DNA of 63,336 nt, filler included, from Reclinomonas americana ATCC 50394 (GCA_048213135.1; 3 parts of 3 records of this genome joined end to end with filler, not necessarily neighbours in it); one strand, 5' to 3'. Positions 449-63,336 are shown, counted from the whole stretch's first letter. Numbers and translations: made by a program. The notes: generated from the letters alone by a model not told the origin.

Positions 449-2659
449 ATGGCGTCCACGTTTGGCCGCTCGATGCGTGACGGCATGTCGTCGCCCGACA
501 TGCACAAGTTGCCGACGAACATTCGCCAGTCGCAAGCCACCGCCACGCATGTGCCTCCACCGCTGTTTGGCGTTTCGTCTTGTTGTTGCTCTTCAGTCTC
601 TGTCTCTCTCTCTGTGCTGACTGTTTCGCCACAGCCGACAGCCGTGCGTCGCAAGATGAAGGAGGAGGCCAAGGAGGCAGCATTGCAGGCATCGCAACCG
701 CCGCAGCGTCGTGTGAGCATCAAGCGGCCAAGCACAACAGGGTATGTGCGCGCGTTTCGTCGTCCTCTTGCCCCTTGCTCACTCGTTCTCTCGTGGTGGC
801 GTAGCTCGGGGCATGGGAGTCCGGTGCACACGGATACGCTGGATACGACGGGATCGCCACCGAGACGCATGTCGAGCAGCGCGGGGGACGGGTCGCAGCG
901 GCGAGCGTCGACGGCTCACGCGTCGCCCACGTCCGTCAAGGCCGACGTCGACGAGGATGCGTACGCGGAGAGTCGACGCCTTCTCAATCTGCAGCAGGAA
1001 GTGCTGGAGATGGACGTTGAGTGATGATGGATTCTCCGATCCGCTCCGTCATTTCTGTGTGTCANNNNNNNNNNNNNNNNNNNNTGCTGACCTCGTTGAC
1101 GCGCAGCAACAATTCACGTCGGCGAAACACTCGTTCGAGGTCAACGAGCGAACGCTGGATGCGCATGCGGTGTCGATCAAGTCGCAGCAGGACGCGTTGT
1201 ACAGGAAAATGATCGAGAACAACAAGTTTATCATGGCGCTCGAGGCCAAGACGGCGCGTGCGGAGAAGAAGACGCGTGAGGAGGCCAAGTCGAACGACCG
1301 ACTGGAGCGCGAGGTGAAGCAGAAGGAGCGGCAGTTGGAGCGCATTCAGGAGAAGCGCGAGAAGATGTTGTCGACGATCCGCCTCTTCGAAAAGTACAAG
1401 CACTTTATGTTTGCGTATCTGGAGCACGTGCAGGACCAGTCGGGTGGCGACTCGGCCGGTGGTGGCAGTTGCGTCATTCAACCCAGCTGTTGTTGTTGTT
1501 GCTATTCCTCATCCTCTGAGTGTCGCAGCCGATGGCGCGGTGAGCGCCACCCCGGAGGCCATTATCGCGCGCTACCACATGCTGATGAAGCAGTTTTCGG
1601 ATCTGCACGAGCGGCGTGCGGTGCTGGAGACGCGCTTGGAGGCCGCCCGGCGTCTCCTGCAGGAGGAGTCGGTGTCGCTGGTGGTGCGACAGGCGAAGAA
1701 ATCGCACGAGTGCAGCGAGTTGCAGCTGGAGCTGGAGCAGGTGGAGTCGCGGCAGGAGCTGGAGTCGCGTGGTGCACGGCGACGACGTCTGCGTGATCAT
1801 TCGAACGCGGGGAACATTTATCGACTGCGCGGCGCCATCAACAACCTCTACGCTCTGTGCCTCACGCAGTCGGTGCAAATGCAGCGGCAGGCGCAGCGTG
1901 CACCACCACGCACGCTGGCCGATCGTGTGCAGATGATGGGCCGTTTCTTCATCGACCTGCAGGATATCGTGGAGGAGTACAAGCACCAGATGACACTCCC
2001 CGTGGATCCACCGGCCTCGGGTGGCCCGGTGCGTGACGAGATGCTGCGTCATTGCCAGCCGCTGGGTGATATTCGCGAAATGGACCTGCGAGTGATGGAG
2101 GAGAAGGCCAAGCAGGAGGAACAGCATCAGCAGAGACGACGAGCGCTGGCGGCGGCGCGCAAGGGTGGTGCCAGTGCAGCGGCTGCGGCAGCAGCAGCAG
2201 CAGCCGCAGCCGCTGCAGGTGGTTCGAGTCACTCGCCGTCACCGGTGGCCGGCTCCAGTGCAAGCGGTGGCGTGCAGTTCTCGAGTTCGGCACAGGCCGC
2301 CATCCGGGCGCATCTGAGCACGGGGCCCCTGTCGCACATGGTGCAGGCGGCGCGCAACTCATCAAACCACTCCTCGGCGCCCTCGTCACGCCCGCACTCC
2401 AATGCCGGCGGCGATCATTTGGATGTGACGGCCGTAGAATACGGGTTGGCGCGTGGCAAGGCCGAAATCAGGGCCAACTACGATCCGCCGACCTTTGTGC
2501 TGGTCAGTAGCGCCAGTGCAAGCCGGGTACGTCTTTGCTCTTGCGTCCTTGTTTGTGGAGTGCTTGCCACTGACCAAACTGTATGTGCAGTCGCCATCGC
2601 CCGATCCCGAACCGGCCAACTTGCGCGGCCGCGCTCGACCAGGCACCGTCAAAGTGTAG
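449..2659 (+). CDS. Cilia/flagella-associated coiled-coil protein, CFAP73/CCDC42 (DUF4200) family, multi-exon
   Basis: NNKFIMALEAKTARAEKKTREE...FEKYKHF, IIARYHML..DL, RGAINNLYALC and FFIDLQDI follow the CCDC42/CFAP73 pattern. Ala/Ser-rich tail. Start and end are approximate. Confidence 0.7.
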
Positions 2660-3046
2660 TAACAGGGGGCCAGCGACAGCGATGTACCAAAGAAAAATGT
2701 AACAACCCACAGAGCTAAGAGGAACCTCGATTCTCTTTCACACCAACGTGGAATCTTTTCCGCTGTGCATCGCATCGTGTGTTCGGATCCCTTCATTTCT
2801 TCTCCTTCGTTTTTGCACGCGCACACCGACAGGCGACAGGGTGAGAGGTGAGCAATCCACATACCTTCCTCACTCACAAGACACCGACGCACGCGTGTCC
2901 CGGCTGCTTCCCATCGATTGTCGTTCTGTCGCGAGAAGAGAGAGAGAGAGAGAGAGTGCGAGAGAGATACCCGCATCGCCCTCATCCTCTGCTTCTGCTC
3001 AGCTCTCACCCTTCCCCCCCTTCTTTATCTCCACCCAGTCATCATC

Positions 3047-4797
3047 ATGTGGTCCACAAGAGTATCCAGTGCATCGTCACTGCTGCGTCGATCGACTGTC
3101 GCCGCCCGCATGTCATCGCTGTCGCAACCGGGACCGCGTGTGGCCAACGACGTGGTTGTGTTGGACTACGAGGACCTGCGTAGTGGCAAGGACCTCACAC
3201 AGGAGGTGTTTCGCGCGTACGGAAGCGATGGACTCGGCGCGCTGGTGATTGGCAACATTCCCGGGTACGTGTGCCAGGGGGCGGTGAGCTCGAGTGAGAG
3301 ATCTCATGTGGCGTGTGGGTGGCGTTGCAGGTTTGCGGAGCAGCGTCGCAAGTTGATTCCCATGAGCCACCAAGTGGCGCACTTGCCGGATCATGCAAAG
3401 CGGCAGCTGGAGCACGAGGAGTCCATGTGGAACGTCGGCTGGAGTCACGGCAAGGAGAAGGTATTCGTGTGATATGAGAGAAGAGAGGAGGCGGGGGCGT
3501 CTGCGAGTGGCTGATCTGTTGCGCAGTTTGGTGACGAGCCCGATTTCGCCAAGGGCTCGTACTACGGCAATCCGCTGTACGACAACGCTGGCACTCCCGA
3601 GATGCGTCTCAAGTACCCCTTCTTCTACCCGTCCAACATCTGGCCCTCGAAGGATTTGCCGCAGCTGGAGCCGGCCTTCAAGGTGCGCAGTCGATATTTT
3701 CTGCGTGTTTTTCTCCCAAGATCACTCACTGGTGATTCACCAGCAACTCGGACGCACCATGTTCGAGACGGTGACGTTGCTGTGCAAGCAAGTGGATGCA
3801 CTCACCTCGCAGCGGGTGCCGACGTACCAGAAGGGTTTGTTGTACTCGCAGATTTCCAAGACGCAAAAGGTGCAGTGCGCGCCCGACAGATGTCGCAATC
3901 GTTCTACCACTCACCTGCGCCTCAGGTCAAGGGTCGCCTGCTCTACTACTATCCCACCGACAAGACCAACACCGAGGATGCATGGATCGGCTGGCACAAT
4001 GATTCCGGCTTCCTCACGGCACTCTGCGGCGACATGTACTTCAACGACACCACCGGCGAGGTCAGTGACTGGCACCGCGCATTTCCTTCTGTTTTGATTC
4101 TGCGCTGACAAGACGGCGAGAATGCAGCGCATTGAGAACCCGGATCCATTTGGCGGTTTGTGGATCACCAAGCGCACCGGCGGTGCCGTCAAGGTCAACA
4201 TTCCTGAGGATCACCTGGCCGTGCAATGCGGAGAGTGCCTGCAGATTGTGACTGGCGGCCTGCTGGTGGCCACCCCGCACGCCGTGCGTGCGAGTCGCGC
4301 CCCACCCGGCCTGCGCGTCGGTCGTGGCACGGTGTGTGAGGCGTTGGAGAGTCTTTCATGATGATTGTTGACGCTCACCTGCGTGTTTTTCCGTGCCAGT
4401 TCCCGGTGTTCATTGACACGGAGATTGACTTTAGGCTGTCGGCTCCATCGGGCGTGTCGCGTGAGCAGGTGTGTCTGGCACCATTCTTGTGCTGTGTGCG
4501 GTTTCTTCTGTTCCTCATCGCATCCGCTCCTTGCCCAGGTCTTTGATCGCACAATTCAGTCTCGTGTGCCGCCACTGGAATCGCGGTGGACGAAGGATGG
4601 TGTCATCTTTGCCGAGTTGCGTCGGCAATGTCTCCAGTAATCATCCTCCTGTTGCTTACACCATTTTGCTTTCATTGCTCAGCTTCCTTGGCGACACATT
4701 CCGCCAGTGCGTCAGTGTTGTTGTGCGATGAGATGACTATGAGGTGTGCTGACTGTTCGTGTGGCGCAGGTACTACGAGTGGGCCAAGCGCTCGTGA
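3047..4797 (+). CDS. 2-oxoglutarate/Fe(II)-dependent dioxygenase (IPNS/clavaminate-synthase-like), about 10 exons, possible mitochondrial presequence
   Basis: VGWSHGKEK, KGSYYGNP, NIWP, RLLYY, the HxD motif WHNDSGFLTAL, QCGECLQIVTGG and ATPHAVR. Arg/Ser-rich N-terminus. All introns GT-AG. Confidence 0.9.
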
Positions 4798-4954
4798 ACG
4801 ACATAATAATCGACGCAAGCCGTGTGATGGCCCCCGCGCAACCCACCCGCCCCTCTCGCCCCTCAATTCAGCAAGCGAGAGAGAACTCATGCACAACCCG
4901 ATAAGTTTATATGAAGAAACACAAACAATAACAGCAAACATCGCACACGACGCG

Positions 4955-7157
4955 TTACATGCCCTGCGTGGACCAGATCTTGCGCAGCTTGCGCTCCTTA
5001 ATCTTGACATTGTTTCGTCGGCCAGCCTGATGGCGTATTCTCTTTTGCGTGTCGCGGCTGAGAGCAGCACGAACCCGGTGCTTCACAGTCTCCGAATCCA
5101 CCGCACTGGCACCGACTCCCTCCTCGTCATCACTCTCCTCCTCGTCACCAGCACTGTCACTGCCCTCTTCTCCATCCTTGTCAACCACAACCGTGGTGGA
5201 CGACGAGCCTGCATCTGCGGCGTGCGAGCATGAGTGAACACTGGGAGTGGGACGACACTGCCAAGAAGCACTCCACACAAACCTGCGCTGACAGCCACCG
5301 TTGCCTTCTCTTCCTCCACCGTATCCTCCTCTTCCTCCTCCTCGGATGAACTCTCCTCCTCAGTGCCGGACGCAGAATCGCTGACCTCCTCGCCGTCGTC
5401 ACCACCGCGTGATGCCAGCAACTTCTGCAGCCGCTTCTCGTCCTTGGTAGTGAAGCCCGACGCAGCCACCTCCTCGTCCAGGGTGTGCGACGACACAATG
5501 TCTTCGAGGCGTGGCCAGTAATCCAAATGCACGTTGAACCGCCGTGCAAAGAACGTGTGCAAACACTGCACATCACGCTCGAAATACCTGAACGAGTGCT
5601 GTAAGCGCAACAGCAGTGAAAGAGTCCTGAACAGGAAAAAGGCAACGCAACTCGGCCGCATTAAAGTGATGAGTGGAGACCATTTGCGGGAAGTCAATCA
5701 CCACAATCCGTCGCTTGATGTCGGCCGGCAAGTGCTGCGCGCGGCGATTGTGATGGAATTTGGCGGCCTCGGCGAGAGGGTTCTCCGAATCCGCGTCTGC
5801 CTCCCCTTCGTCGCTTCCACTTTCACTGGAATCCTCTGCCCCTGCCGCTGCGGCTGCTCCTGCTGCTGCCGTGGCGATAACATGCGCATCACCAGCCTCG
5901 TCTCCCTCCTCGCTACTGTCATCATCATCATCATCATCATCATCGTCATCGTCGTCCTCTTCCGCATCAACTGTGCCCGCTGGTCTCCTCGACACCTCCT
6001 CCGCGCCCACGACCCCGTCATCATCACCATCGCCCTCCTCTTCATCCTCTTCGTCGCCGGCCTTGTACTCGAGCATCAGGTTGAACTCGTTGAAATCGCA
6101 GTGAATGAGACCGTGCTCCGCCAGATGCACGATGCTGTCCAGCGACTCGCGGAACAACTCCAACGCAATGGAGGGCTTGACTGCCTTCATGTTGGCCCTG
6201 GGGAAAAAGAAGGGACGCTGTCAACACGAGGGAGCGCGACAACATTCTCTCGTTCAAGAGAAACAACGCAACAGAGTGGTGCCAGGCACCAGATCCATGA
6301 CCAGGCAGTGGCGATTGTAATCCACCGGTTCGGGCACCGGGAAGCCCTCCTTGTGCAGCGCAGCCATGAACGCGTGCTCCTTCTGCGCCGACAGACGCGA
6401 CATGTAGAGCCACGAGGCACTCTTGCGTTTCCCGAGATAATCACGCTTCTTCTTCACGGCGCGGAACGAGGTGCGACCGAGTCGGTGCAGCTTGAGCACA
6501 CGATCGTTGCCTTCCGCATCCACCACACGGTACACGTCTGCAAAGCATGTGAGCACACGCACACACACACACTCAAAGGTGAAGGAGGATCACACACCAG
6601 CCTCCTTGCCGACGCCAATCTGACTGCCGACAGCTGCCACGGTGCCGCGCTCCATGAACACGCGCAGCGCCAGGAAGTCGTATCCCAAGTACGTCAGGCA
6701 GTACCCATCGTCTGCACACACACACGAGTCAGCGTTGCCACAGACAGTGAGAGAGCGAGATTCTCACAGGCACGCAACAGTGCTTGCCATCGTGATGAAT
6801 CAACTTGTGCTTCAGCAGATTGGTGATTGTGTGGAACGTGCCGCCACGCTTCAGTCGCGCAATCTGCTCAATCTGCGACGGGGTGCGCGTGTGTGGTGTG
6901 TGAGAGGAAGGCGGTGATGTGAATGTGCACATGGCCAAAAGCAGGCCCACCACCACAACCACACACGCGCGCGCTTACCAGTTGCACAGGCACAAGCTCG
7001 TGGTTCTTCATGCCCACCTCCACCGCCGTGAGGACACGGAAATCCTCCTTCTGTGGAACATACAAACAGACAGTTATATATGAGCAAGGCCACCAGCGCA
7101 GGCACGTAGACGGAGACGCACCGACAAGTAGCGCAGTTGCGTCGCGTCGAGCTTCAT
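4955..7157 (-). CDS. RIO2: Serine/threonine kinase RIO2 (40S maturation), multi-exon
   Basis: [102 protein letters not shown]. Confidence 0.97.
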
Positions 7158-7240: not shown

Positions 7241-10050
7241 AGTTGCGTTCTTCCAAGTGTGTACCTCTCTGATCACATACGGCTAACATGTACACACAGT
7301 GGCACATCGTCTGCCAGAGGACGTGCATGAGGCACGTCGGCAAGCGATTGCCGCAGCTGCCTCGTCCCCGACTTCTTCTTCTTCAGCAACTTCGCCAGTG
7401 TCGTCACCACTGGCCAGTCACGACAGAAGGCGACTGCGTGACAATGAAGTTCGCGTGGAGCCGAGTGGGAAGAACGAGGTGTCGTTGGACAATGACGGTG
7501 ATCGTGATGGTGATGATGATGAAGGATGTGATGAGGCTGTGCGTGGGAAGACGCACTGGGCGGCTGTGTGGGCGTTTCTGATTGGTGTGCTCATGACGCA
7601 AGTTGCGTGGCGTGGCGCGGCGATCGTCTGTGGTGATGAAACGTGAAAGTGATTGCGCATTGGCGTTAGATCTGGAACAATGCGAATCAAGTCGTGCAGC
7701 CGCTGATCGTGTTAAAGGATACTGATGATGTGCGTGGCCTTTGTTTCTGTCGTTCCTGAGTTGCGGTCGTCGTGTTCATCCATCGTCGTGTTGGGCAGCC
7801 GTCGATTGTGGCATTCATGTTGGTGAGTTGTCTCTCCAGTCAAGATTGTGGTGAGTGTGCGATGATGTGAACGAGTGCTTGCGCTTGCAGATGGCGTACG
7901 GTGTCTGCAACGCGTTCGGGAGCATGTTTGGCGGCTTTGTATATCCCTTTTTCTCGCCTCGCGTGCTTCTCGTGCTCTTCTGTCTCGCCCGGTGAGTGCT
8001 CGCATCGACGAGGAGGAGAGTGCAACGATTGAAAACACACGTGCTCAACCCATGCACATGCACAGATCGTCGTGTCAGGTCACTGTCGCCATCTGTTGCG
8101 TCACGTGCTTCGTGGTATCCTTGTCTCTCTCTTCCCGTGCTGATTCCCCTTATTTTCGCCTCTCGCTCAGTGTACTTGCTGCACAAGGGACCGCCGTGGG
8201 TCGCGCTCACCGTGTACGCCGTCGACTCGTTCCTCATCGGTTCGTACCGCTGTAGAGGCGACGGTAGCAGTGTGTGACAAGCCACTCATTTCGAAGAACA
8301 GGTTGTTTGGACACGGTGCGCACCTCGTTTCCACGATCGGCGTACGGCTCCGACAAGAAGGCGTTAAACAAGTTGAATGCGGACTATCAACTGGCCTTTG
8401 ACTTGGGAACCACCATTGGTGCTGCATTACTTCCTTTTACACGACACGATTGTGTGCTGTACTGACTCCAATATGCAGGCCCGCTGGCGTGCGGTCTCGT
8501 GATGACGTACACCACCGACTTGTATGTGGCCAGTTTTCTGCCGCCCGCCGGCTTTGTCGTCAGTGCACTGCTCTTTTGGTCAGTCGCTGTCCCCTGATCG
8601 CGCTTATTGGCTGCAATCTTACCCACAACAATGTGCCTGCCACGCAGCTTTGTGCCACCGATTCAGAGCGACGCCGCAGTGGCACGGAAGAAGAGCAAGA
8701 AGACACTGACCACGGGCGATATTATTCGCAAGCAGTCGCCATGGTCGTCCTGTCGCTACCTGTGTGGCAATCTGAAGATGACTGTGGCGTTTGTCGCTTT
8801 CCTCATGCTGCAAGGTGCGGTGATGGTGGGAGCCTCGGGCTCGGTGCTTACTGCTGATCGCTCCACGTGCAGTGTATCGGCTGAAGAGTGTGTACTCGGC
8901 GCTCTTTGCGACTCAAGTGCTGCACGACAAGACGTACACAGCGTGGATGGTACTTGGTCGCTGCGATGGCTCTGTGTACACTCTTTTCCATTTGTGCGTG
9001 GTTGTTCACTGCTTTGTGTGTGCCCAGATGTGTGCGTTTGGTGTTGGCGGCACACTCGGCTCGCTCATCTATCGATTGTGCGAGAAGTGCGGCAAGATCT
9101 CGTCTGTGCGATTCATGCTGCTGGGCGCCACCAGTCTCGCCGTGTTCTCGTTGATCTGGATTCCGGAGCTGTACTTTGGCAAGTGGCCACTGATGGCGCG
9201 CTTCGTCATCACGGAGGCCGCCATTGTGTTCATGCTGATCGGCAGCGTCGGCGCGCGTTTGGCTGTCAATGTTATTTTGCAGCACGAGATCAAACGTTGC
9301 GTGCACGTTGGAGATGAGGATACCATAATGACTGCGGGGCTGACGCTACAAATGCACGATACACAGGATCGCGAAACGGCGGAGTTATGGCATTGGTTGG
9401 TGCAGTATTGCCGGTCTCCCGATCAAGTGTCGTCGTCACTCGCTCACTCACTCACTCACTCACATGCACATGCAACCGTAGCGTGGCTTCTTTGTCAAGG
9501 TGGTGGCGTCGGCGATGCGCGGTGTACTCGGTGTCGCCTTCAAATCGACGCACAACAACGGCATCCTGTCGTTCATCGTCTTCTCCTTCATGACCATGGC
9601 CTTTGCGCTCACTCAGGTGCGTGCGGCACACCCGCCGCCACCGCTCCTCCTGTCGCATCATGTACTGATTCGTCGCATCATTCGCAGTTCGTATTCTCGT
9701 GCATCCTCCGATGCGTCCACGCCGACGACGACGACACCAAGGAAGAAGAACAGCTCCTGCTGCCGTCGTCGCCCTCCTCGGGCGAGAGCGTGACAGTGGG
9801 TCGGCGAACGCCCACTGGCGAGGTCCAGAAGATCTTTGCCTGGAAAGACGAGCCAGACGACGACGACGGAGATGACGCCAAGGTGTGTTGCTCGGAACCG
9901 CTTTCCTATTCCATGCGTGCATATTAGGTGCTTGGCGGCCAGTTTCGGTACTCACTGTGTAGTTGTCCGCGGGAATTGCATGTCTGCAGTCTCCGAACGG
10001 GGGGAAGCGCGCCGCCAGTGGCCACCGTCCACCATCGGTCCCCGCACTAG
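7241..10050 (+). CDS. MFS-type multi-pass transporter, paralog A
   Basis: About 12 hydrophobic segments over many short exons. LDTVRTSFP...KKALNKLNADYQLAFDLGTTIGP is shared with paralog B. The start codon appears split A|intron|TG. The 3' end is approximate. Confidence 0.75.
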
Positions 10051-10155: not shown

Positions 10156-11671
10156 ATGGGATGTGCGGCTTCCACGCGGAACACGGTGGCGACCGCGGCC
10201 GTGCCACCCACCAACAAGCACGTGACACGCATCACAGCTGCCTCCTCACGCACCACCACCATCACCTCCTCCACCTCCTCGTCGGCCTCCACCATTAGAA
10301 CAGGGCACACGGGAGCCTCGTCGCCCTCCGCCTCGGCCTCAGCACGCACCGCAACGGCCTTCTCCACAGCAGCAGCAGCACTCAACGGTGCACCACACTC
10401 ACACCAACAACAACAACAGCAACAACAACAACAACACAACGGCGACACTCATCAACCGCTCAATCATCGTGCCTCTGCCTATCAGCAGCCTCGTCGCGGT
10501 GACTACTCTCACACTGCTGTGCACTCGAGAAAGAGACAACAAGAGCAACGTCTGACACATACACACGCGCGCGCACACAGATGAAGAGGACGAGGGTGAT
10601 GAGTTTATGCCTCAGACGACGCTGGCCAACACTGTGGCGTCGCTGATTGTGGGCGACAGTGCGGTGCCGACGACGGTGGCCACGGTGGCGATTGAGGCGC
10701 CACTGACAACGAATCGCACAGTGTTGCAGCAGCCGGCGACGGGCGAGATGAGGGAGAGACCGGCGGATCCCACAGAGGCGCACGCGTGGTTGAACAGGCA
10801 CGTTGTGTGTGTGTAGAGAGGGAAGGGGTGAGGGAGGTGCAAGCTGACTGTGTGTGCTTGTGTGTGTGTTTGTGTGTGAGCAGCACCAAGAATCCAATGG
10901 CGCTTCGATTGGGTTGCGTTGCTTTGTGGTCTCTCTCTCCTCGCGTTGTCCTTGCCGCTCATGCGCTCCCCCCCTTTGCTGTGCAGCGCAATGGACACGC
11001 ACAGCGTACTTTAGCAACGACGCGCTCTCGTTTGAGTATCCAGCAGATGTTGCGCGCGGCGATTTGTGGTGTTATTCTTCTTCTTCTCCTCCATTGGTGT
11101 TGACGCACTTTTTTGCAGTGGGAGTGTGGGATGGACGCGGGTGGAGACACGGTGCTGGTGCAGGTGGCGTTTGGACCGAGTTTGCGCGTGAGCCCCGACA
11201 TATTCCCTGCGGAGAAGGCGCTCAGCACCGACGAGTATGCCGACGTTCGTGTGTTTTTCCCATTCCGGCGTGCCCCCTCCAAATGCGTCTGACGACTTTC
11301 TCTCCCCCAATAACAGCTGGTGAACTCGCAAGTGCATTCGGCGATACCACACGAGACCGTGCTCTCCGATGAACTCGTGGAGATTGGCGATGAGGTGTGG
11401 AGGAAAGTTATCAGACAATACTGGCAACGAAACTCGGTGGACGGCACGACGGTGCGTGGCGGGCGTGCTCTCTCCTCTCCATTGCACTCCTCTGCTCACC
11501 ACCAGCACGCAGATCCCACTCGAAGTGCGTCAATGCACATATTTCCGCACCGAGATCATCGACGACTACTGTGTGGCGTACGCCCACACGTATACATGCG
11601 GGCCGCAGCTCTGGGAGCTGTACTCGCCAATCTTTGAAAAGATCCTCAGAAGCGTAGTGTACAGAAAGTAA
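10156..11671 (+). CDS. N-acylated (MGCAAS) protein with a PsbP/Mog1-like domain, paralog A
   Basis: Spliced: MGCAAS...HAWLNSTKNPMALRL..YFSNDALSFEYPADW..STDEYADLVNSQV..TYTCGPQLWELYSPIFEKILRSVVYR. The FxYPxxW and terminal 'PIFEKIL.S' motifs resemble PsbP/Mog1/DcrB-fold proteins. Confidence 0.6.
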
Positions 11672-13137: not shown

Positions 13138-13787
13138 TCACCTTCCTCGCATGGCTACAGTGTAGTTCGGCACATCATAGTCGGCCGACGACGCCAAGCG
13201 TGGCGGAGGCGGCACAACAAACGTCACTGCAAATGCCAAGTCAGCGAGTCAGTCACGCAGCTGTCAAGCACCTCTCTCGTGCGCGCACACCTGGATGCTT
13301 GGCGCCTCGCAGGTGCACGCTCACTGTCTCCAATCCATCGACCACTGCTCGCTCCAGCGACTGCAACAGTGTCGCCGTCAGCAGCCGCACCGACACCAAT
13401 CGCGCCGGCAGCGTGCGTGGCGAGCAGTCTTCCTCCATGGCCACTGCGAGCGATAGACATGAGCAGAGAGGGAGAGAGAGCAAGAGAGAGACACGGAGTA
13501 AGAGCGCAACAAAGAGAATCGCCCTTGGCCACCAAACGCATGCGCTGGTACGGATTCGGAGGCGGTGGAAGGAGGTAACGCGACTCGATCGAGCGCAGCA
13601 CAGAGAGGCGTCGGAAGGCGTCGATGCAGCGACGTGCGGTGCGGACCTGCAATGAGCGTGAGATGAAGACACACACATTGACAACAACAAGAGCGAGACA
13701 CACAACTGCGTCGAGCAGTAGGTAGGCCAGCGCGGAGCTTGTGGGCACCAGCAGGCCTGTCGACACAATGGCGCTCAGCAGCGCCAT
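13138..13787 (-). CDS. Hypothetical small protein with an N-terminal transmembrane segment
   Basis: MALLSAIVSTGLLVPTSSALAYLLLDAVVCLALVVVNVCVFI... plus further spliceable exons. No recognisable family; end uncertain. Confidence 0.4.
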
Positions 13788-13856: not shown

Positions 13857-15411
13857 ATGGTGCGTCGCCGTGCATGCGTGTGCTCATCTCTGTGTGTGTA
13901 TGTGTCATGACGACGGGCGTTCTCCTTTTCACGCACGCGTGTCTTTGTGTGTTGTCTTGCCCGCGTGCTTCATGTTCGTTCATGTCGCACGCGCGCGCGC
14001 GTGTCGGGAATCGCACATCAGAGTGACTGGATAATGAGAGAGCTTACTTGTGTGTTTTCGTGTGTGTGTTTCGTAGTCTGGCGCTGCAAAGAAGCCATCA
14101 TCGTCGTCATCATCAGGCGCGGCTGCGGCCTCGGCTGCACCCGCTGGCAAGTCGTCGGTGAGTCACACACTCGCACAGAATGACACGTGGCAGCTGTCTG
14201 TCCACGCACGTGTGCGGGCATGTCTATACTCCTTGTCTACGTGTGTGCGTGCGTGTGTGTCGTTGGGAGGGAAGAGCGAGGGGGGCGGTGGCAGAGAGCT
14301 GGTGTGAAATGTGCACTCTTTTTTCTTGTTGTTCGCGCCATGCCCCTGCCCCCGTGCGCTCACCTTTGCTGCACACCAACAGTCGGGCAGCAAGTCGGAT
14401 CGCGTGAGACGGAAGGATGCGCACGACTACTCGAAGGTGCCGCTGGAGGATCGCTTGACTGATTTGAGTTGCGCTTGTCATGCACACATACAGGTGCACA
14501 CACACACGCAAGTGTGGCTCACTCTCTCTTTTGCGGCGCAGTGTACGTGTTGTGGTACCTGGTGATGTTCGCCGTCGTCATGCCGGTCGCTCTCATGTCG
14601 GTGACGGCGCACTACAAGAACGTGCCGCTGGCCAACGTTGGCGAGCACCTGCCGTTCCTCGCCCCGTGCGTGATCGAGGCGGTGGCCAAGTTTGGCGAGA
14701 TCGCCGACCCCATGATGGTGTGCAAACCGAGCCCGTTCTGCTGCCTCATCATCATCGTCATGGTAATAACGAATTTGCTGTGTTGGTAGAACTTGAACCC
14801 GGGCTGGCTGGTGGCCATGCAGGGCTTCAACCTGTTGGTGTGCGGCCCCCTGTACCTGCTGACCGCGTTCGGTTTCCTCTTTGGCTGGAACTGGATCCGC
14901 GTGCCGGCCACCATCAACTCGGTGTGGACCCTCTACCAGATTGCGATGCACGGTTCGGAGACGTTCTTTGGTGGCGTCGCCCCGATCGAGCCCGTCACCT
15001 ACCTGGTGGCCTACGCACCGGCCGTGCTCATCTCCATGGCCACGTACAAGCGCCTGTCGATGGTTGAGCCCTTCTAGTTGCGTCTGCACGCAGGCCTCCC
15101 ATCACACCGATCCTCCTCCTCCTCAACCCCTCTCCATCTGCAGCGCCAACGAGCGTGGTGTGTTCAAGGCCGTGGCGCTGAACGCCGCCTTTGTGGTGGT
15201 GATGGCCGAGGCTTTGGCGGTGGTGGCCTTCATGGCCTTCCGCTTTGCCGTGTTGCACCTCGGCTACGGCGAGGTCTGGCAGCACCCGCACCTGGTCAAG
15301 GCCCGCGACTTTGTGCTCCACGACGCGCGCGGAACGGTGACCGTGGAGGAGCTCCCCCTGACGCACAACGCGCCGGCGGGTGGTGCCTCGATGGTGGCCG
15401 ATGAGAACTAA
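13857..15411 (+). CDS. EXPERA-domain membrane protein (EBP/TMEM97/TM6SF superfamily)
   Basis: PLEDRLTDLMYVLWYL, ADPMM.NPGWL, GPLYLLTAFGFLFGWNWIRVP, E.FFG, R....PF. First exon is ATG only (ATG|gtgcgt). Confidence 0.75.
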
Positions 15412-43267: not shown

Positions 43268-43299
<32 letters not shown>

Positions 43300-43424
43300 C
43301 ATGAGAACGGGCGACACAAGGGACAGAGAGTGAAGACGAGTCAGAGAGGGCTTCTCTCTCCCTCCTCTCTCTCCCTCTCACACACGCCAGGCGCACTGAT
43401 CCACACACGCACTTCCTGAATCAC

Positions 43425-43457
<33 letters not shown>

Positions 43458-49600: not shown

Positions 49601-52000
49601 GAGAAGGTCTCACCGCGCGGATGACAACGTCATTGCGAGCATCCCTTACCGCGAACCGATCTCTCCACACCGCGTAATCTTTCCCAGCCATACCGTGCTC
49701 CACCGACTACACATGCATGCATACGAAAAGGCATAAGAGAGCAGGCGGCACATGGAAACAACATTGCGACGCAACGTATGGTTCCACTGTCGTGACACCG
49801 CGACACACGAGCTCACCAGCGAGCGTACGGCAAAATTCGCGAACTCGCATGTCAAATTCCCCAGCACCGCCTTTGGCAAATTGCTGCAAACAAGAGACAT
49901 GAGCCGCAGAAGAGATGACACAATACGACTATTGCAGGCACTCACCGCTGCAATGTCCGTCTCAAAGTGCTCGACTTCGTGAATAATACGCCGATCCATG
50001 AAGACACGATACAGATCGGCGCGAGTGACTCTTCGCCGCCAGTCCTCACGCGCCAGATCATCGCTGACGCGCACAATCATTTGAAGCATGATAGGCTGCG
50101 GACCGGCAGTAATCGAGTGATTATGAAGGCAGTAACAGAGCCACCACCAATTAAGGGATTTCCATACCGATTTCGCCAGATCAGCCAAGCCGGGAATGCG
50201 ATTGATCTGCTGCTGACGACGATCGTGCATCAGCCGGTCTTCGTGGTGCTGCTCGCAATACCTGGTCCAATACGACTACTATTGGCCACCACTTCCTTTC
50301 AACAAGAAGTCGACAGCACAGCAACAACGCAACTCGAGCAAAAACCGCCCCACGTCTGTAAAAGAGAATGGCCGAAGAGCACAAGTGAGCAGTGTCATTT
50401 CTCGGGCCGCGGCGTCAATCTCTGTTGCTCGAGTCAACGCCACATCCAAAGGATCAAACCGGCTTGTCCACTGCCGACCAAGACGATTGATGAATTCACG
50501 GCGGACAGAGACGATGAGCCGCAAATTTGGGAAGTTCTGGATCGCACCGCACAGATGAGTAAGAATGCTGCGCCGGCAGGTCAGAATGTCGGCGTCGCTC
50601 TGTACGCACCGCCAAATTGTGGAAACGATAAAGGTTGTCCGGCACCGGGCACTCGTCAAAGCCGTCCAGAATCAGCACAATCTTCTGACACTCGGACAAC
50701 TGCGCTCGGACACAGCCGTGAGCAAAAACAAAAGGATTCTCGCTCACTTGCATAGAGATGCGCAAGCACGCACATCTTCGCACTCGAGCCTCAGTCGCCG
50801 ATCCACATCGCGAGTCGCGCACTCCAGCATATGCGGCACCAAGCGACCTCGTGTGTGAAGCACATCTTGCGGAAGGACACACAGTCGCTCTCGCAGGACC
50901 AACATGTTGGTGTTCTTTTCCGGATCGGCAAAGCGCTTGTACATCTTGCTCAAGAGCGTGGATTTGCCAGCACCCGACCAGCCCACCACCACAGCCACCT
51001 GTGTGTCGAAATGCTCATCATGAGTAACACCACACACAAGAACGCATTTGAACTTTGCGGAGTACGCACGCGATCAGTTGGCCGCTGACCACTGTCTTCG
51101 ACAAATCGCGAGAGGAGCTCGTCGGCAAGTGTGTTGCGGCCGTCGAGATCGTCAGACTCGTGAACTGAGTCGTTGGCGAATACGTCGATCTGCGGCACAC
51201 ACGACGATACAAGCATCATGGTTCAGCACAAACGCGCAGCATGCCTCCGCGCACACACCGATACGTGTACACCGAACCAGTGTTTCCTGCTCTTGCTGCA
51301 TTCTGGCCACTTCCTGTTCGGCATTCACGAGAAGGCGGACTTGCACTGCGCGAATGGCAGCAAGTTTCTCTGCCAAAGACACCACCGAGGCCACAAGCCA
51401 CACATTGCCGGCAGCCTGCACAGCATGACCACGGCAGGTGAGAAGAAGATGCTTGCCCAATGCTGCTGCACAACGTGCGCGTGTCACGCACCAACAGGTC
51501 TTGAATCTCAAACAGCTGCTCCGGCTTCATGTCAGCATCAAAGCCGTCCACGATCAGCACAATGCATCGAGTGAAGCGCGCATTTCCCCGCACTCCCGCC
51601 AGAGTTGGACACAGTTCTTGCTTGAGCAGCTTCCGCCCTCGCGGCAACAGACTGTTGATGCAATCTAACATGTACAACAGCAGTTGGTGTCGCTCTCCGA
51701 GGTTTCTGATGTGTGACAGTCGCTCTCGAAAGACAATTGTGTCAACGCTCTCGAATGGCGGCTTCCATCCTTGGCGTCGTAGTTCCTTGAAGTTGCCAGT
51801 GGACTGCGCAAATTCATAGCTTTCCGTCACAAGCTTGAAGTACAAGTGGTCCAGCAAGAGAGATTCGCCACCATCAGGCCAGGGCTCGGACACAATCAGC
51901 TGTGGCGCACACACACAGCCATGCAACAATGAGTGATATGCACGGACAAACATTCACGCACACACACACACACACAAACACAGACACAAACACACCTCCA

Positions 52001-55548: not shown

Positions 55549-57392
55549 GGCGGATGTGCTGATGTCTTCCAGATTGAGGATTGCGCGCAATAGTTTGTGT
55601 TGAAGAGGGCGAGAGTGAGAGAGAGGCGGCACGACAGAGACTGGAAGTGAACGAGAGTGAGAGACAAAGGGAGACAGGGAGATCTGGAGCATGGATGTGT
55701 GTATAGAAGAGAGGGACAGAGAGAGAGAGAGAGAGAGAGGAAGAGAGAGCGTTGCGTGAGGGAGAGAAGAGGATGGTGTGCTGATGTCTTCTTGATTGGG
55801 AATACGATATTTGTGCGTTTGGAAGAGTGCAAGTGAGAGTGAGAGAGAGAAAGGGAGAGAGACATGGGGAGTTCTGATGGTGTGCGGGGTTGAGAAGTGT
55901 TTGCAAGTATCTGTGCGTTGAGGAATCAGAGTGTGTGAGAGCGATGGAAGATAAGGAGAGCGTGTGTTGATTGTGTTCGGGGGACAGGGGAAAGAGAGAA
56001 ATGTTTGTTTGAACGTTGATGTGAGAGAAGAGCAGAATCCGAGAGATGGGAGTGCAACCTCCATTTCTCTCACACCAGCTGGATATATCTCTCTGTCTCT
56101 CTCTCTCTCTCACACACACACTCTAAACACGCATGTATATGATCGTGCACGCACGACCTCCTTTCTCTACTGATGTGTGGTGTGGGCGATGTGGTTAGCA
56201 ATGGAGGCCTGGGGGAAGAAAGAAACACCGAGAAAAAGCATGCTTCGAACACTCATTATCTCTCTCTTTCTTTCTCACTTCTAAACACGCACATAATCGA
56301 TCATGCACACGCAACCTCCACGTCTCTCCCACACACATGCTGACTGCAAGAGAGAAGGAAGGCAGCATTCTCTCTCTCTCGCCCTCTCTAAACACGCTCA
56401 AATTTGACCATCCACATCTCTCCCACACATGCTTTGCACATACTCACCCTTCCCCCTTTCTCCCTTNNNNNNNNNNNNNNNNNNNNNNNNNNNNNNNNNN
56501 NNNNNNNNNNNNNNNNNNNNNNNNNNNNNNNNNNNNNNNNNNNNNNNNNNNNNNNNNNNNNNNNNNNNNNNNNNNNNNNNNNNNNNNNNNNNNNNNNNNN
56601 NNNNNNNNNNNNNNNNNNNNNNNNNNNNNNNNNNNNNNNNNNNNNNNNNNNNNNNNNNNNNNNNNNNNNNNNNNNNNNNNNNNNNNNNNNNNNNNNNNNN
56701 NNNNNNNNNNNNNNNNNNNNNNNNNNNNNNNNNNNNNNNNNNNNNNNNNNNNNNNNNNNNNNNNNNNNNNNNNNNNNNNNNNNNNNNNNNNNNNNNNNNN
56801 NNNNNNNNNNNNNNNNNNNNNNNNNNNNNNNNNNNNNNNNNNNNNNNNNNNNNNNNNNNNNNNNNNNNNNNNNNNNNNNNNNNNNNNNNNNNNNNNNNNN
56901 NNNNNNNNNNNNNNNNNNNNNNNNNNNNNNNNNNNNNNNNNNNNNNNNNNNNNNNNCCCCCCTTTCTCCCCCCTTCCCTCTATTCCCCCTTTTCTCCCTT
57001 CCCCCCCTTCTCCTCACCACAGTGGACGGCGCCGCCAAGGTCAAGCGCGAAGTGCAAATGTACCAGTGGCAAGAAACCATCAAGGAGGCTGGCCGCGGTC
57101 CCGCCGACGCGAGTGGCAAGCAGGCGGTGCGGCGTGAGGTCACCTACGCGCCAGTGTGGTCCGAGAGTTGAGTGTGCTGGAATCCTCTCTTTTCGCAGCC
57201 TTCTCATTCGTGCGCGCACACACAGAGCCAATTGCGCACAGCACCTTCCGCATCCCCGACGGACACGTGAACCCGCAGTTCCCCTTCGAGTCCACCGTGA
57301 TGAACGCACCGTCGCTGTCGGTCGGTCAGCGTATTCTGTCGCCCACCCTCACGGCGCAGCTGCGCTGCAGCACACCGGTGCCGGTGTCTGAT
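54646..57392 (+). CDS. TMEM43 (DUF1625)-family membrane protein, partial
   Basis: VKREVQMYQWQE, YAPVWSE.PI.HSTF..PDGHVNPQFPFES...A..LSVG...LS. Signal-peptide-like first exon; its link to the later exons across gaps is inferred. Confidence 0.7.
55320..55452. repeat. (CTT)n/(GTT)n compound microsatellite
   Basis: Seen directly in the sequence; source of the spurious poly-L/F/E ORFs. Confidence 0.9.
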
Positions 57393-57492: not shown

Positions 57493-59599
57493 CAGCAGCA
57501 GAGGCGGCGGCGGGAGCAGATGAGACTTCCATAGCCGTCACCTCGGTTGCCGCTGCCGCACTCTCCTCCCCACCGCTCTTCTTGCTCGACGCATCCGGCG
57601 ACGACGACTTCTGCTGCGCCTGCTTCTTGCCCTTGGTCGAAGCTGTGGTGGAAGAAGACGCCGCCGGCGCCGACGCAGTGGTGCGTCCGCCAGACTTGGA
57701 CGACTTGGTCACCGGTTCCTCCACGACCTCCTGCGCGTCGCCACCATGAATCTCACACACACAGGCAGAAGAAAGAGTCAGCTGTGTGCGTGTGCGTGCG
57801 TGCGTGCGTACGCAACCAGTGTATCGGTCTCCCGCTGTCGCTTGCGCGACTGCTTCTTGGCGAGTGCCGTCGACAGTTCGGCCGAGTTATCCTCCGAGAT
57901 GCGGCACCGGCTGCAGTACCATTCACCCTCCGGCACCTCGTCGAGCTTCGGTGTGTCGCAGTAGGTGTGGCACGCACGATCACAGTACGAACAAATGATC
58001 AGATTGCTCTCATCAGTGCCCCACCGACATCTGTGTGCGCGCGTGATGAGCAAAATACAAAAGAAGGAGGCGGAACGAGTGCACACGCACGCAACTTGTT
58101 GCAGTAGTCGTTGCGACGGAAGCGAATGAGCTGATTGCGAATGTGTCGACCGAGCTTGACGCCCTCCCAGAACGCCTTCTCCAGTGGCTTGGACGAGCGC
58201 ATGCGCGCCTTCAACTTTGGGTACTCCTCCGAGAACTTTTTCAGATGCTTTTGCCGCACCCACGCGTGCTCAAAGGGCCTGCGACAGCGAGTGAGTGCGA
58301 GTGAGGACATGGCCATGTCCAGCACAAACAGGCACCCGCGCGCACACTCAGCAAAGAGCGCGTCCACGCAAACTGACGAGTGCGCAGGAGGNNNNNNNNN
58401 NNNNNNNNNNNNNNNNNNNNNNNNNNNNNNNNNNNNNNNNNNNNNNNNNNNNNNNNNNNNNNNNNNNNNNNNNNNNNNNNNNNNNNNNNNNNNNNNNNNN
58501 NNNNNNNNNNNNNNNNNNNNNNNNNNNNNNNNNNNNNNNNNNNNNNNNNNNNNNNNNNNNNNNNNNNNNNNNNNNNNNNNNNNNNNNNNNNNNNNNNNNN
58601 NNNNNNNNNNNNNNNNNNNNNNNNNNNNNNNNNNNNNNNNNNNNNNNNNNNNNNNNNNNNNNNNNNNNNNNNNNNNNNNNNNNNNNNNNNNNNNNNNNNN
58701 NNNNNNNNNNNNNNNNNNNNNNNNNNNNNNNNNNNNAGACGGGGGGAGAGAGACGCAACTGCGTGAGGAAAATGACCAGCGTGTCATCCTCGGCGCGCTT
58801 GTGCTTGTTCTGCGCCTTGCCACTGAAAAACGCGGCAGTGTTGCGCACGACCTACACAAACGAGCGACAATCAGATGGAAGCAAACAGAGAGAGAGAGAG
58901 AGTGCAAGCGCGCGCGCGCGTGCGTGTGTGTAATGCAAAGGGGATCGAAGTAGAAGAAGAAGGAAAAAGGGGAAAAATTCAAGTGTGCATCTTGCGCATC
59001 CCATTTCTCGCCGCAGACAGTGTCGATGCGTGCGTGGGCGCCGCCTGTGCGCCTGGCGGCAATGACCAAGGAAGAACGACACCAAATTCACAAAAAAACT
59101 GCTCGTTTGCCTTCTCCCCCTCCGTACACGAGTGATGTGCACAGGTGACCGTGTGTGTGCATGTGTGTGTGCGCGTTTTATCGTGGAAGAAAAGATGACA
59201 CACACACAAACCATTGCAGGCCACAGCTTGTTCTGCCATTTGCTGCAACAACGACACCCCGCAATGAGCATCACACTCGCACTCTTACTCATCTCACAGA
59301 CACATACACACACACCAGAACACAATGTCATCCTTGGAGGTGACGTTCGGATCGACCTCCAACACCGACATTCCCCCAACGCTGTGCACTGGTGACAACG
59401 ACGACGACTGCTTGATAGGTGCGCTGACGGGACGCGATGCGAGCGTGTCACAAGTTGGATGTCGACTGCTGAGTGTGCGCGCGCACGAAGTGAATGTCGA
59501 AGTGTTTGCCGGGACAGAGCGAGCCTTGCCGCGATCTGTCCGTGGCGGGAAAAATCAAGTGTGTGTGTGAGAGAGAGAGAGAGTGTGAGTGTGAGTGTG

Positions 59600-59655
<56 letters not shown>

Positions 59656-60130
59656 TGACACTCCAGCGATCTGCAACGGTTTCTGATGGAGAGATTAGGT
59701 GAGAAAAGTGTGACAAAAGTGTGACAAAGTGAGAGTGCGTGAGAGTTCAGCTCTCTCTCTCTCTCACACACACACACGCACACACGCACATACACACACT
59801 CTCTCATTCTGTTTCTTCTCACTCTTTCTCACTCTCTTTTCCTCGTTCTCACTCTCAGGCGACTCAATGCCGCACTTGCCACGCGTTGATGATGATGAAG
59901 AGGTGGATGAGAGCGACGAGGAGGAGGAGAATGGAGAGCGATCGGCGATGAGTTTGGAGGCGATTTTCGAGGCCGAGTTTCGTCTGATTTCCTGTGTCTC
60001 TCGCTCTCTCGCTTTGCTTGCTGATGGTGGTGTTGTGATAGGGATGTGCTTAGTCGCGCGCAGTTGAGGCGGCAGCTGCCGTCGTCGCGTCTGCATGCGA
60101 ATACGATTGCGTCTACTACTCCCAGTGATC
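57493..60130 (-). CDS. PWWP + PHD finger chromatin reader, partial
   Basis: DDIVFWCKWQNKLWPAMVV..LVIFL..HAWV..LKKF (PWWP-like) and CNKC...LIICSYCDRACHTYCDTPKLDEVPEGEWYCSRC (PHD). 5' end uncertain. Confidence 0.8.
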
Positions 60131-60159
60131 CGGTGAGTTGGCGAAGGGAGGGAAAGGAG

Positions 60160-60505: not shown

Positions 60506-60579
60506 CACTGAGACATCAAGTGTTCTTGCTGGACCGTCTCCCCCATGCTCACCCTTCCCCGCCACAGCAATTCCACACC

Positions 60580-63336
60580 ATGATGCTGGCGCAGCGTCGT
60601 GAAAAGCAGCGGCGCGAGGCCGAGTTGCGCAAGCGCGAACTGCGCATTCGTGAGCAGACCAAGAAGCAACTGCGGTTCGTTGCCTCTTCGGTGTGCTTCT
60701 TTGTGATGATGCCGGTGCTGATGTGTGTGTTTGTGTGTGTGAGCAGGAAAATCGAAGAACACCATCAGTCGCTCCTCAACAAGAAAGTGCGCCTGCTGGA
60801 GAAACTCAAGCAGATTGAGAGTTGTGTGCGATCCCCAACCGATCACCAATGCCCGTTATTCACCCCCTGCTCCCGATCCATGCAGCGAAAGAAACGCTGC
60901 GTGACACACCGGCGCCGTCATTACGACAGGCGGGGTACATTGCATCGCTCGGCTCCGACTCGCCGGCATTTGATTTCCTGCAGGTGTGTTTGTTCCACCG
61001 TGTCAGTCGCTTTATCCATGCGTGCCTCATCCCGCACCAGCGAAACACGACGCGCTTGAGTGCCGAGGACCGGGGCAGAATACAGCAGCGCGCACGTGAG
61101 CGAGTGGGGCGGCGAGTGGCGTCGCTGGCCGAGCAGCTCAAGGACCGCGTGGAGGACGCCACCGTGAAANNNNNNNNNNNNNNNNNNNNNNNNNNNNNNN
61201 NNNNNNNNNNNNNNNNNNNNNNNNNNNNNNNNNNNNNNNNNNNNNNNNNNNNNNNNNNNNNNNNNNNNNNNNNNNNNNNNNNNNNNNNNNNNNNNNNNNN
61301 NNNNNNNNNNNNNNNNNNNNNNNNNNNNNNNNNNNNNNNNNNNNNNNNNNNNNNCGGTACGTATTGTGCTGGAGCAAGCTACGACGCCGACATCAAAGCT
61401 GCTGCTGCTCAACTCAATCCACGCACAGACTGCAGCAATTTTCGTCGGCACCACTGGAGGAGCTGGCGCGCAAGGCCACGGAGGTGGTCAGCAGTGTGGT
61501 GGAACCGGCATTGGAGGAACGACTGCGCGCCAATGATCGCGCCGCTCGACGGGAGAACGATATCATTGCACGCACCGTCAAGGTCATTTTGGCTGAGCGA
61601 TTGCAGGAGGCGGCCGTCCAGGACCAGGATCGATTGTCGACCAAGGTCGGTGCTTTTATTCTGTTTCTCGCATCCGCTCCCTCACCACGGCATTCACCAC
61701 GCGTCGCCGTCTCCAGGAAAACCTGCGCAACGCGTTGCGCTCACGTCACGTCAAGCATGTGCTGGATGCCACACCGCTGGACCAGGCCATGGTCGCCGAG
61801 CTGGCCGAAGCACAAGTGGTGCGTGCAAAGTCCATCTTCCCCGCTCGCCCTCTTCCTCACTCTTTCTGACTCGTGCCTGGCAGCACGACTGCCGCGATGA
61901 CGCACGAGCGGTGGCACGTGATTTTGATCCGCACGTGCGAGCCGAGCGCTCACTCACGCAAGTGGTGGTGGAGAATGCATTCTTGCGTGAATTTGGTGAG
62001 TGTTTCACGTGTCGCGATCGACTCGAGCGCGCCTCACCGTATGTGTCGTCGCCCCGCAGAGCACATTGATCCGCTGGAGGAGATTGGGAACATGCAGCGT
62101 GCACTGGCCGAGTTTGCGCGCAGCGATGCCGCCCTGGAGACCGAGATTGCGCAGCTCGAGACCGAGTTCGAAGGTTCCTGCCGCGCGCCCCTCTGTTTGC
62201 ACCCCCTCCCTTTTTTTTCGCACTCAACGCAACACGTGCTACTCCAGAGCGCCGACGGCAATTGGACCATCTCGTTCCGCTGCTGGAGGACCTGTCACAG
62301 ACACGCGCACGCACCGGCTCGCTGCCACCGGGTCCACCACCCGCGGCCTTCTCGTCGGCGGCCATGGCGGCGGCTGCGGCGGCCGCTGCTCCTGCTGCCG
62401 CTGCTGCCGCCATGTCGGCATTCGTTGTCGGGGTCCGACGTTGCGTCTGCGTGCCGATTCCGTCCACCACGGCCTCAGTCGTGAGTCTCATTCGTGTCTG
62501 TGCGCGCGTTGCAGCGAAATCCAAGTCCGTGTATGGCGCCGGAGCAGCCAACGCTGCCGTGGGTCAGCCGGCGCCACCCGTGTCGAACCGCGCGCAGCAA
62601 ATGCAGAAACTCGATCGCCGACTCAAGGTGAGTGTTTTTTTGTGGTTGTGAACCACCGGCGACGGCTGCACCATCCAACTGTCTCCACGCAGGAGAAACG
62701 CATGACAGCGCGACGCCTGGAGGCGCAAGCGGAGGAGCTGCGGCAGGAAAAGAACGAGTTGTTGCGCGAGTTTCACCAGACTGTGCGCGGCAATGGCGAT
62801 GCTGACGAACTGGAGCGGTTACGCATGGCCATTGAGGACGAGTTGGTCATGTTGCGTGTTCCCTCTCTCTCTCTCTCTCTCTCTCCGCAGCTAGTCACTT
62901 TGCTTACACGCGCACACTCGTTCGCAGGTCGGCCATGGCACACGAAAAGCACCTGCTGATGCAGCGCGAGGACTCCGAGGCCATGAGTGTGGTGCGGCAA
63001 ATCGAACGGCTCACCCGCGAACACCAGGAGGCCGTGCAAGACCGCGTTGACACCATCTTGCACCGGGAGCGCGAGCTGGAGCATCTGCGCGTGATTGCCG
63101 ATTATGTGCCGCGCATCCTCAACGTCTCACAGGAGCAACTGCGTCGACAGAGCATGCAACAGGTGCGTTCGCTCCGCTACTGCTTGGCCTGAATGCGTGC
63201 ATTCTCACCGCCGACTGACGACAGGTGGCCGACATTGAGGCGATCCACGAGCCGCGTGTGAAGGAGTGGCAGCGATTGTCGAGCAACATGCAGCGTCTCA
63301 ACGAGCAGATGCAGCAGCAGGTGCAGGAGAAGCTCA
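60580..63336 (+). CDS. Long coiled-coil protein, multi-exon, runs off the window end
   Basis: MMLAQRREKQRREAELRKRELRIREQ..., then many E/Q/R-rich heptad exons with GT-AG introns. No family recognised. Confidence 0.6.

Follow-up and report, generated by a model that had tools for sequence, protein, structure and literature searches.

GTTGCG(T) as a frequent intron donor in a 63-kb window of Reclinomonas americana, with a candidate one-base shift of the U1 register

The position at which the spliceosome cuts an intron is normally fixed relative to the site where U1 small nuclear RNA (snRNA) binds. Shifted and bulged registers of U1 pairing have been established experimentally in human cells, according to the passages of PMC4856993 that treat them. 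Here we describe a class of 5' splice sites (donors) in a window of DNA from Reclinomonas americana ATCC 50394 (GCA_048213135.1), the window being the whole 63,336-base stretch analysed, in which introns begin with GTTGCG, usually GTTGCGT, and more rarely with GTTGAGT or GTTACGT (together, the GTT class). Judged from the sequence, these are genuine 5' ends of short U2-type introns, making up about 17-27% of the introns of the window, and a route of intron-start recognition that is rare in humans appears to be routine here.

Closest to the GTT class is the human shifted (+1) register (Roca & Krainer 2009, as related in passages of PMC4856993), in which the base pairs move by one position, the G at intron position +1 takes the place of the G at the last exon position (-1), and the cut is made at GU. 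That register is a rare exception in humans, unlike the GTT class, which supplies the commonest donor hexamer of the window and has a tight GUUGCGU consensus. The human bulge +2/+3 and bulge +3 registers (Roca et al. 2012, through the same passages of PMC4856993) share with the GTT class a single extra nucleotide, often U, between GU and the rest of the consensus, but they predict that the preference for G at -1 is retained, and that preference is absent from the GTT class. Among 201,541 human sites, as tallied in those passages, the bulge predictions number 68 for +2/+3 and 51 for +3, and all validated noncanonical registers together make up 1.5%. Within the window, GTT introns resemble the ordinary GT-AG introns (donors GTGCGT, GTGAGT and GTACGT) in length, CTSAC branch motif and CAG acceptor, and lie in the same genes, with both kinds mixed in PPT1 (palmitoyl-protein thioesterase) and in the RIO2 kinase; they differ in having an extra T at +3, a low frequency of G at -1, and an even distribution of intron phases.

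Two further systems invite comparison. Human variant U1 snRNAs (vU1; PMC3561869 and PMC10870369, in the parts concerned with them) would likewise give a dedicated snRNA to non-consensus donors; they are minor species, not the partners of a quarter of introns. The tunicate Fritillaria borealis departs from the donor rule genome-wide, and a shifted U1 register is discussed there as a possibility in the relevant part of PMC13326754; that species loses the GT and AG dinucleotides, whereas the introns of this window retain GT-AG and depart from the rule solely in the register of the flanking consensus. Full-text literature searches, pairing the motif with splicing terms and covering shifted and bulged registers, found no such donor class described in any organism. 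In the genome papers on Andalucia (PMC7050145) and Diplonema (PMC10161547), the intron passages speak of GT-AG only; the supplements may hold donor logos. Human precedents exist for the mechanism, but a donor of this kind that is the commonest motif and strictly complements exonic G appears to be undescribed.

GTTGCG(T) donors in gene models and homolog alignments

The window is eukaryotic sequence, dense in genes and rich in introns, with about 58% G+C and 17 runs of N. Genes were modelled with a purpose-written dynamic-programming finder of spliced open reading frames (ORFs), which uses a 3-periodic Markov coding score self-trained on the window and limits introns to GT or GC at the donor, AG at the acceptor, and 35-400 nt. 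Three model sets were compared: a donor-blind set with acceptor, branch-point and length terms, a first donor-aware set, and a final donor-aware set. The non-donor parameters of the donor-blind run were inherited from an earlier donor-aware iteration; fully donor-naive is only the very first run, with 116 donors, in which a donor model was absent at every iteration. Everything reported below is based on this one 63-kb window, its self-trained gene models, and nine junctions checked against homologs.

In the donor-naive run, GTTGCGT was the top donor 7-mer, at 11 of 116 donors, with GTTGCGC at another 2 of 116. In the donor-blind run, GTTGCG supplied 17% of the donors (28 of 162) but makes up 1.15% of GT sites overall, an enrichment that the original prediction had called for; GTGCGT accounted for 15 and GTGAGT for 9 of the 162. 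The final donor-aware model contains 143 introns (45-130 nt) across 29 genes, with 39 donors of the GTT class (35 of them GTTGCG), 52 ordinary donors (GTRNGT or GTGCG), and 52 others, this last group probably containing false predictions. GTTGCG thus makes up 17-24% of the introns of the window across models. Calling these sites a second class of donor was too modest, GTTGCG being the commonest single donor hexamer in the window. Counted over both strands, the window holds 94 occurrences of GTTGCG and 45 of GTTGCGT, where 7.8 are expected for a 7-mer of equal base make-up. When the same predictor was run on the window reversed without complementing, the gene count was 2 and the intron count 4, and not one of the 52 GTTGCG sites served as a donor. 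A weakly discriminating test of 3' signals, scoring acceptor plus branch point 50-95 nt downstream, placed 33% of GTTGCGT sites above the 90th percentile of all GT sites, as against 3-12% for GTTGCT, GTTGCA and GTTGCC.

All 35 positions at which such donors had originally been placed carry the motif on the expected strand (GTTGCG at 33, of which 25 are GTTGCGT, and GTTGAGT at two, 18206 and 57167), and the exon ends in AG at 0 of the 35. As introns, 30 of the 35 occur in at least one gene model, with 24 recovered by the donor-blind set, 27 by the first donor-aware set and 30 by the final one; the sites at 7242, 7602 and 9296 on the plus strand occur in none, and N gaps interrupt the introns at 26491 and 58759 on the minus strand. 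Beyond these, the analysis turned up roughly ten more GTTGCG introns and a single GTTACGT intron.

At nine junctions in RIO2 and PPT1, eight with GTTGCG donors and one with GTTACGT, removal of the GTT intron restores the reading frame and the conserved protein, and the alignment to 12 homologs for each gene is free of insertions and deletions. All nine lie on the minus strand. In RIO2, the three GTTGCGT introns are at 6712-6778 (67 nt), with junction KHY/DGY, whose Y is conserved in the homologs (a slash marks the junction here and below), at 6198-6272 (75 nt), with PGTTL/ANM, and at 5588-5651 (64 nt), with NAAE/YF, the last two also being found in the models. In PPT1, GTTGCGT introns are at 16696-16762 (67 nt), 16541-16605 (65 nt, TAG acceptor, NAIG/FSQGG), 15905-15966 (62 nt), and 15667-15741 (75 nt, VVGD/HLRF), a GTTGCGA intron is at 15997-16066 (70 nt), and the GTTACGT intron, whose donor is a T-inserted GTACGT, is at 16375-16445 (71 nt, GGQHF/GVFG); a further stretch spanning two junctions reads LN/KFVLVKFTED/SMVQP. 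The motifs by which frames had been anchored at the outset, H-Y/DGY in RIO2 and AIG/FSQG and GD/HL in PPT1, lie at three of these junctions.

GTT introns look like the ordinary introns of the window in length and acceptor. All of those given coordinates in this report begin with GT and conform to GT-AG. Among 31 GTT introns of the donor-blind set, the acceptor is CAG in 26, TAG in 3, AAG in 1 and GAG in 1; GTT and ordinary introns alike have a median length of 67 nt and a CAG acceptor, and the median over all introns is 69 nt in the model with acceptor, branch and length terms. Expectation maximization over 102 introns, with all introns pooled rather than the GTT class taken separately, gave a branch motif of CTCAC in 34, CTGAC in 15 and CTCAT in 14, with a median distance of 21 nt between its A and the 3' end. 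Phases in the donor-blind set are even for GTT introns (9/9/13) and biased to phase 0 for ordinary introns (24/7/10).

Two special origins for these introns were considered and rejected. Minor (U12-type) introns typically carry a long conserved donor box; the GTTGCGT donors run into variable sequence instead. An introner or other repeat-derived family was sought by all-against-all blastn of 166 predicted introns, and the first 20 of 41 matches consist only of overlaps between alternative models and low-complexity sequence. On those matches, GTT introns share no sequence past the first 7 nt and so are not copies of a mobile element.

Exon-end preferences and the register of U1 pairing

The two donor classes differ sharply on the exon side. 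Among donor-blind predictions, exons end in G before just 5 of the 31 GTT introns, as against 31 of the 41 ordinary introns (Fisher p=9e-7), and across model sets the frequency of G at -1 is 76-81% for ordinary and 15-16% for GTT donors. The proposal that the GTT class is complementary to exonic AG is upheld in the same donor-blind set, where none of the 31 GTT donors follows AG, as against 25 of the 101 remaining donors (Fisher p=0.001). A companion proposal, that exons ending in AG use other motifs (GTGCGC, GTGTGT or GTACGT), stands insofar as only 3 of the 25 donors after AG are GTGCGT or GTGAGT, but the remainder is varied and the class probably includes false predictions. After an exon end other than G, GTTGCG is the commonest donor by far (24), followed by GTGCGT (4).

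Position -1 of 39 supported GTT sites has A14 C8 G6 T11, which is unlike position -1 of ordinary donors (p=1.5e-6) and similar to their position -2 (A14 C5 G12 T10; p=0.47). Relative to coding composition, A is enriched at -1 of GTT sites (14 of 39 against 19%, p=0.013) and G is depleted (6 of 39 against 33%, p=0.025). On the intron side, in tables of 25 GTT and 35 ordinary donors in which some columns are fixed by the class definitions, positions +4 to +8 of GTT donors mirror positions +3 to +7 of ordinary donors, including the preference for C and the predominance of G after GCGT. Conservation in the GTT class reaches 24 of 25 for G at +4 and 21 of 25 for C at +5, and opposite U1 position 5 each class shows a strong bias to C over A (23 to 7 and 21 to 2).

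When the GTT class's own +1 G is counted, a G stands two bases ahead of the conserved U in about 87% of donors of the final model (124 of 143), where an exonic G precedes 42 of the 52 ordinary donors and 43 of the 52 others; the 87% figure is partly self-reinforcing, since the donor-aware model includes exon positions.

A U1 register shifted by one base (+1) predicts that the -1 G preference should be lost with the exon preferences moved one base, and that positions +3 to +7 should match the local consensus of +2 to +6, and both are observed. We regard such a register as the probable explanation of the GTT class, with moderate confidence. The broader proposal that this lineage makes routine use of a 5' splice site in which the usual +5 G is at +6 is supported.

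Under a shifted register, the element first bound by the spliceosome would be the heptamer G-N-U-G-C-G-U. At ordinary sites the first G of the heptamer would be the last exon base (G/GUGCGU). In the GTT class, where the second letter is U, the only GU would lie one base upstream, and the cut would fall before the first G (/GUUGCGU), so that the +1 G of the intron stands in for the exonic -1 G. Because the intronic G would replace the exonic one, GTT donors would need neither exonic G nor AG and would be the usual donors after A, C or T. Cleavage would be set by the requirement of the catalytic core (U6, U5 and Prp8) for GU, with an extra U tolerated between GU and GCGU, and the shifted pairing could be made either by a standard U1 tolerating one mismatch or by a U1 with an altered 5' end.

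Several points weigh against this account. A human-type U1 5' end is predicted to pair very weakly with GTT sites, at -0.3 to -2.1 kcal/mol for exons ending in a base other than G. With either a human-type or a hypothetical GCGU-matched U1 end, the predicted stability of GUGCGU lacking a -1 G is at least that of GUUGCGU, and U1 pairing energy alone therefore fails to explain the use of GTT after non-G exon ends. Homology backs 9 of about 40 junctions, the remainder being given by gene models. The predictor is self-trained on 63 kb with weak codon bias, and false positives among the other donors make the class proportions approximate. The preference for C opposite U1 position 5 hints that the U1 of this organism, or a later step involving U6 or U5, departs from the textbook.

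That hint bears on an alternative in which the snRNA itself differs: a changed or second U1 (or U6) snRNA would have a 5' end pairing perfectly with GUUGCGU, for example with A opposite the +2 U, and GTT would be the primary consensus. GTTGCGT is indeed the commonest and most tightly conserved donor, standard U1 does not account for the preference for C over A opposite U1 position 5 in both classes, and the predicted pairing of GTT sites with human-type U1 amounts to only -0.3 to -2 kcal/mol. Variant U1 genes are known in humans, as parts of PMC3561869 and PMC10870369 describe. The exon-side statistics, however, come out identical under a shifted register, so that none of them favours a variant snRNA specifically. 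The 5' end of U1 is, moreover, highly conserved across eukaryotes, which counts against a change in it. We consider a variant snRNA of this general kind unlikely. Marginally less likely still is its more particular form, a U1 whose 5' end, possibly together with the U6 ACAGAGA region, has changed such that GUUGCGU is fully complementary and the primary 5' splice site. Were U1 so changed, many introns, a large share of the total, would have the cleaved bond displaced by one nucleotide relative to the U1 duplex, the recognition element would be wholly intronic with the constraint on the exon gone, and every codon position would be open to the presence or gain of an intron, which agrees with the even phases.

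The original prediction had named first, ahead of a dedicated variant U1 or U6 snRNA, a bulged register, in which U1 pairs canonically at +1 G and +2 U, the additional U at +3 (or +2) is left as a bulge, and pairing resumes normally at GCGU. The motif does equal the local consensus plus one U, and a bulge at +3 (or +2) is among the registers established experimentally in human cells (PMC4856993, in the passages cited above). A bulge at that place, however, would leave the exon -1 base facing U1 C9, where G is expected, and the observed frequency falls from 31 of 41 in ordinary donors to 5 of 31 in GTT donors, with 6 of 39 against 33% in coding sequence. Pairing energy with a human-type U1 end points the same way, at +2.2 kcal/mol for the bulge and +0.1 kcal/mol for the shift. 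The bulged register is thus not borne out and is, in our estimate, improbable; the shifted register fits better, because the preference for G at -1 is lost and position -1 of GTT donors resembles position -2 of ordinary ones.

Least probable by far is that no intron starts with GT at these places, either because the introns are GC-AG with an exonic GTT (GTT/GCGT) or because they are artefacts of the models or a different motif, intronic or genomic. The frame would be preserved by a GC donor three bases downstream, and 5 of the 35 original sites are in no model or cut by an N gap, but the frame-neutral start is excluded at the nine RIO2 and PPT1 junctions because the extra residue it would add is absent in comparison with homologs (NAIG/FSQGG and FTED/SMVQP, for example), the conserved Y of KYDGY would be lost if both boundaries of KHY/DGY were moved by one base, the donor-naive model picks these GTs while the reversed-sequence control picks none, and the introns have no similarity to a repeat family.

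Should the shifted register be correct, the organism would offer a natural system for the handover from U1 to U6 and U5 and the choice of the cleaved bond, and would let one ask whether donors independent of the exon relax the coding constraint on intron position. Shifted and bulged registers matter in the interpretation of human splice mutations. Gene finders trained on GTRNGT logos or on single weight matrices would, in such a genome, overlook or wrongly place roughly one donor in four.

Positions of the remaining GTT introns

Besides those in RIO2 and PPT1, fourteen introns from the original list are found in all models. On the plus strand these are GTTGCGT introns at 4616-4682 (67 nt), 10913-10986 (74 nt), 23556-23622 (67 nt, AAG acceptor) and 62851-62927 (77 nt), GTTGCGC introns at 11049-11118 (70 nt) and 14468-14541 (74 nt), a GTTGCGG intron at 22069-22133 (65 nt), and the two GTTGAGT introns at 18206-18265 (60 nt) and 57167-57225 (59 nt). 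On the minus strand they are GTTGCGC introns at 20117-20182 (66 nt) and 29243-29307 (65 nt, TAG acceptor), and GTTGCGT introns at 33295-33355 (61 nt), 57752-57816 (65 nt, GAG acceptor) and 58031-58095 (65 nt). Two introns additional to that list, both on the minus strand, share the support of all models: GTTGCGC at 13444-13510 (67 nt) and GTTGCGT at 45169-45241 (73 nt). The originally listed GTTGCGT intron at 15077-15143 (+; 67 nt) is also modelled, and the exon preceding it is a weak EXPERA/EBP match.

Introns found in the donor-blind and final models comprise two from the original list, GTTGCGT at 1468-1528 (+; 61 nt, CAG acceptor) and GTTGCGT at 49707-49775 (-; 69 nt, TAG acceptor), and three additional ones, GTTGCGT at 8095-8170 (+; 76 nt), GTTGCGC at 45043-45104 (-; 62 nt) and GTTGCGT at 62440-62514 (+; 75 nt). 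Found in the donor-aware models, all from the original list and on the minus strand, are GTTGCGG at 29332-29398 (67 nt), which has strong acceptor and branch scores, GTTGCGC at 45651-45713 (63 nt), likewise backed by acceptor and branch scores, and GTTGCGT at 45786-45850 (65 nt). Weak candidates, present only in the final model, are the originally listed GTTGCGT intron at 50276-50333 (-; 58 nt, TAG acceptor) and the additional GTTGCGT at 27498-27571 (+; 74 nt), GTTGCGT at 44085-44154 (+; 70 nt) and GTTGCGC at 45568-45634 (-; 67 nt). The GTTGCGT originally listed at 40059 is modelled only as a 389-nt intron at 40059-40447 (+) with a doubtful acceptor.

The two GTTGCGT sites cut by N gaps are at 26485-26491 (-), where the gap spans 26059-26439, and at 58753-58759 (-), where it spans 58392-58736. 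The three listed GTTGCGT sites found in no model, all on the plus strand, are at 7242-7248, where 0 of 3 models place a coding-region intron and the coding signal is weak on both sides, at 7602-7608, and at 9296-9302.

Four GTTGTGT donors appear in the models only, at 10362-10440 (-), 13647-13706 (-), 23292-23373 (+) and 60821-60885 (+). Together with the homology-checked GTTACGT of PPT1, this suggests that every local donor variant has a T-inserted counterpart.

In the NADPH-cytochrome P450 reductase gene, an ordinary in-frame GTGCGT intron corresponds to an exact gap in homologs, and a modelled GTTGCGT intron additional to the original list, at 36795-36854 (+; 60 nt, in frame), falls in a variable linker of the homolog alignment. 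Four predicted introns of this gene, at 36639-36704, 36795-36854, 37169-37237 and 37417-37476 (+), are stop-free multiples of three and leave the ORF at 36226-37899 uninterrupted; in homologs, the first of the four corresponds to an exact gap, and a gap similar in size to the third lies near it.

Relatives and other features of the window

Genes of the window backed by Pfam include RIO2 kinase, PPT1, NADPH-cytochrome P450 reductase, WD40 proteins and a fatty-acid hydroxylase; long exons mostly lack a Pfam family. Top matches of the reductase reach at most 39% identity, and a protein atlas offered no pointer to the lineage. In a single-gene tree, the window adjoins the jakobid Andalucia godoyi among the Discoba, on a long branch; support for this placement is moderate (88/90).

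A metagenome scan with a PPT1 exon returned 15 loci at 40-68% identity, of which the 12 that reach the exon end continue into the sequence of the next exon and are thus uninformative about the donor. One Logan ORF, P0242 (64 aa, on a 1376-bp contig), is 78% identical to the PPT1 exon at 15742-15903 and reads VVGD followed by V-A-F past the exon end. The V-A-F is compatible with GTNGCNTTY, as if the relative might have a GTTGCGTT-like donor at the same intron position. Neither the metagenome loci nor an exon-sized search with RIO2 yielded a close relative. Several exon-sized RIO2 ORF fragments of other organisms end or diverge right past the PL motif at the intron at 6198-6272 (-), and some continue with Y-V, which is the readout of a GTATGT donor in the same phase. 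The RIO2 GTTGCGT intron at 6198-6272 may accordingly sit at an old, shared position rather than be a recent gain.

A search of the window against Rfam for snRNA genes gave no match at gathering thresholds, and at E<=0.1 returned just two sub-threshold low-complexity matches, both to RF02400 (the Hsp83 3' UTR family, gathering score 90), at 43207-43529 (+) with 28.9 bits and at 59600-59799 (-) with 20.4 bits. The most over-represented 7-mers of the window come from (TC)n and (GT)n tracts, and the RF02400 matches are most likely an effect of their abundance.

The DAO domain (PF01266) is matched in two places on opposite strands, profile positions 69-160 at 25569-26058 (+), in a scaffold piece lying between two N gaps, and positions 293-343 at 24535-24927 (-), in the piece next to it. 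The middle piece may be inverted in the scaffold, or there may be two genes.

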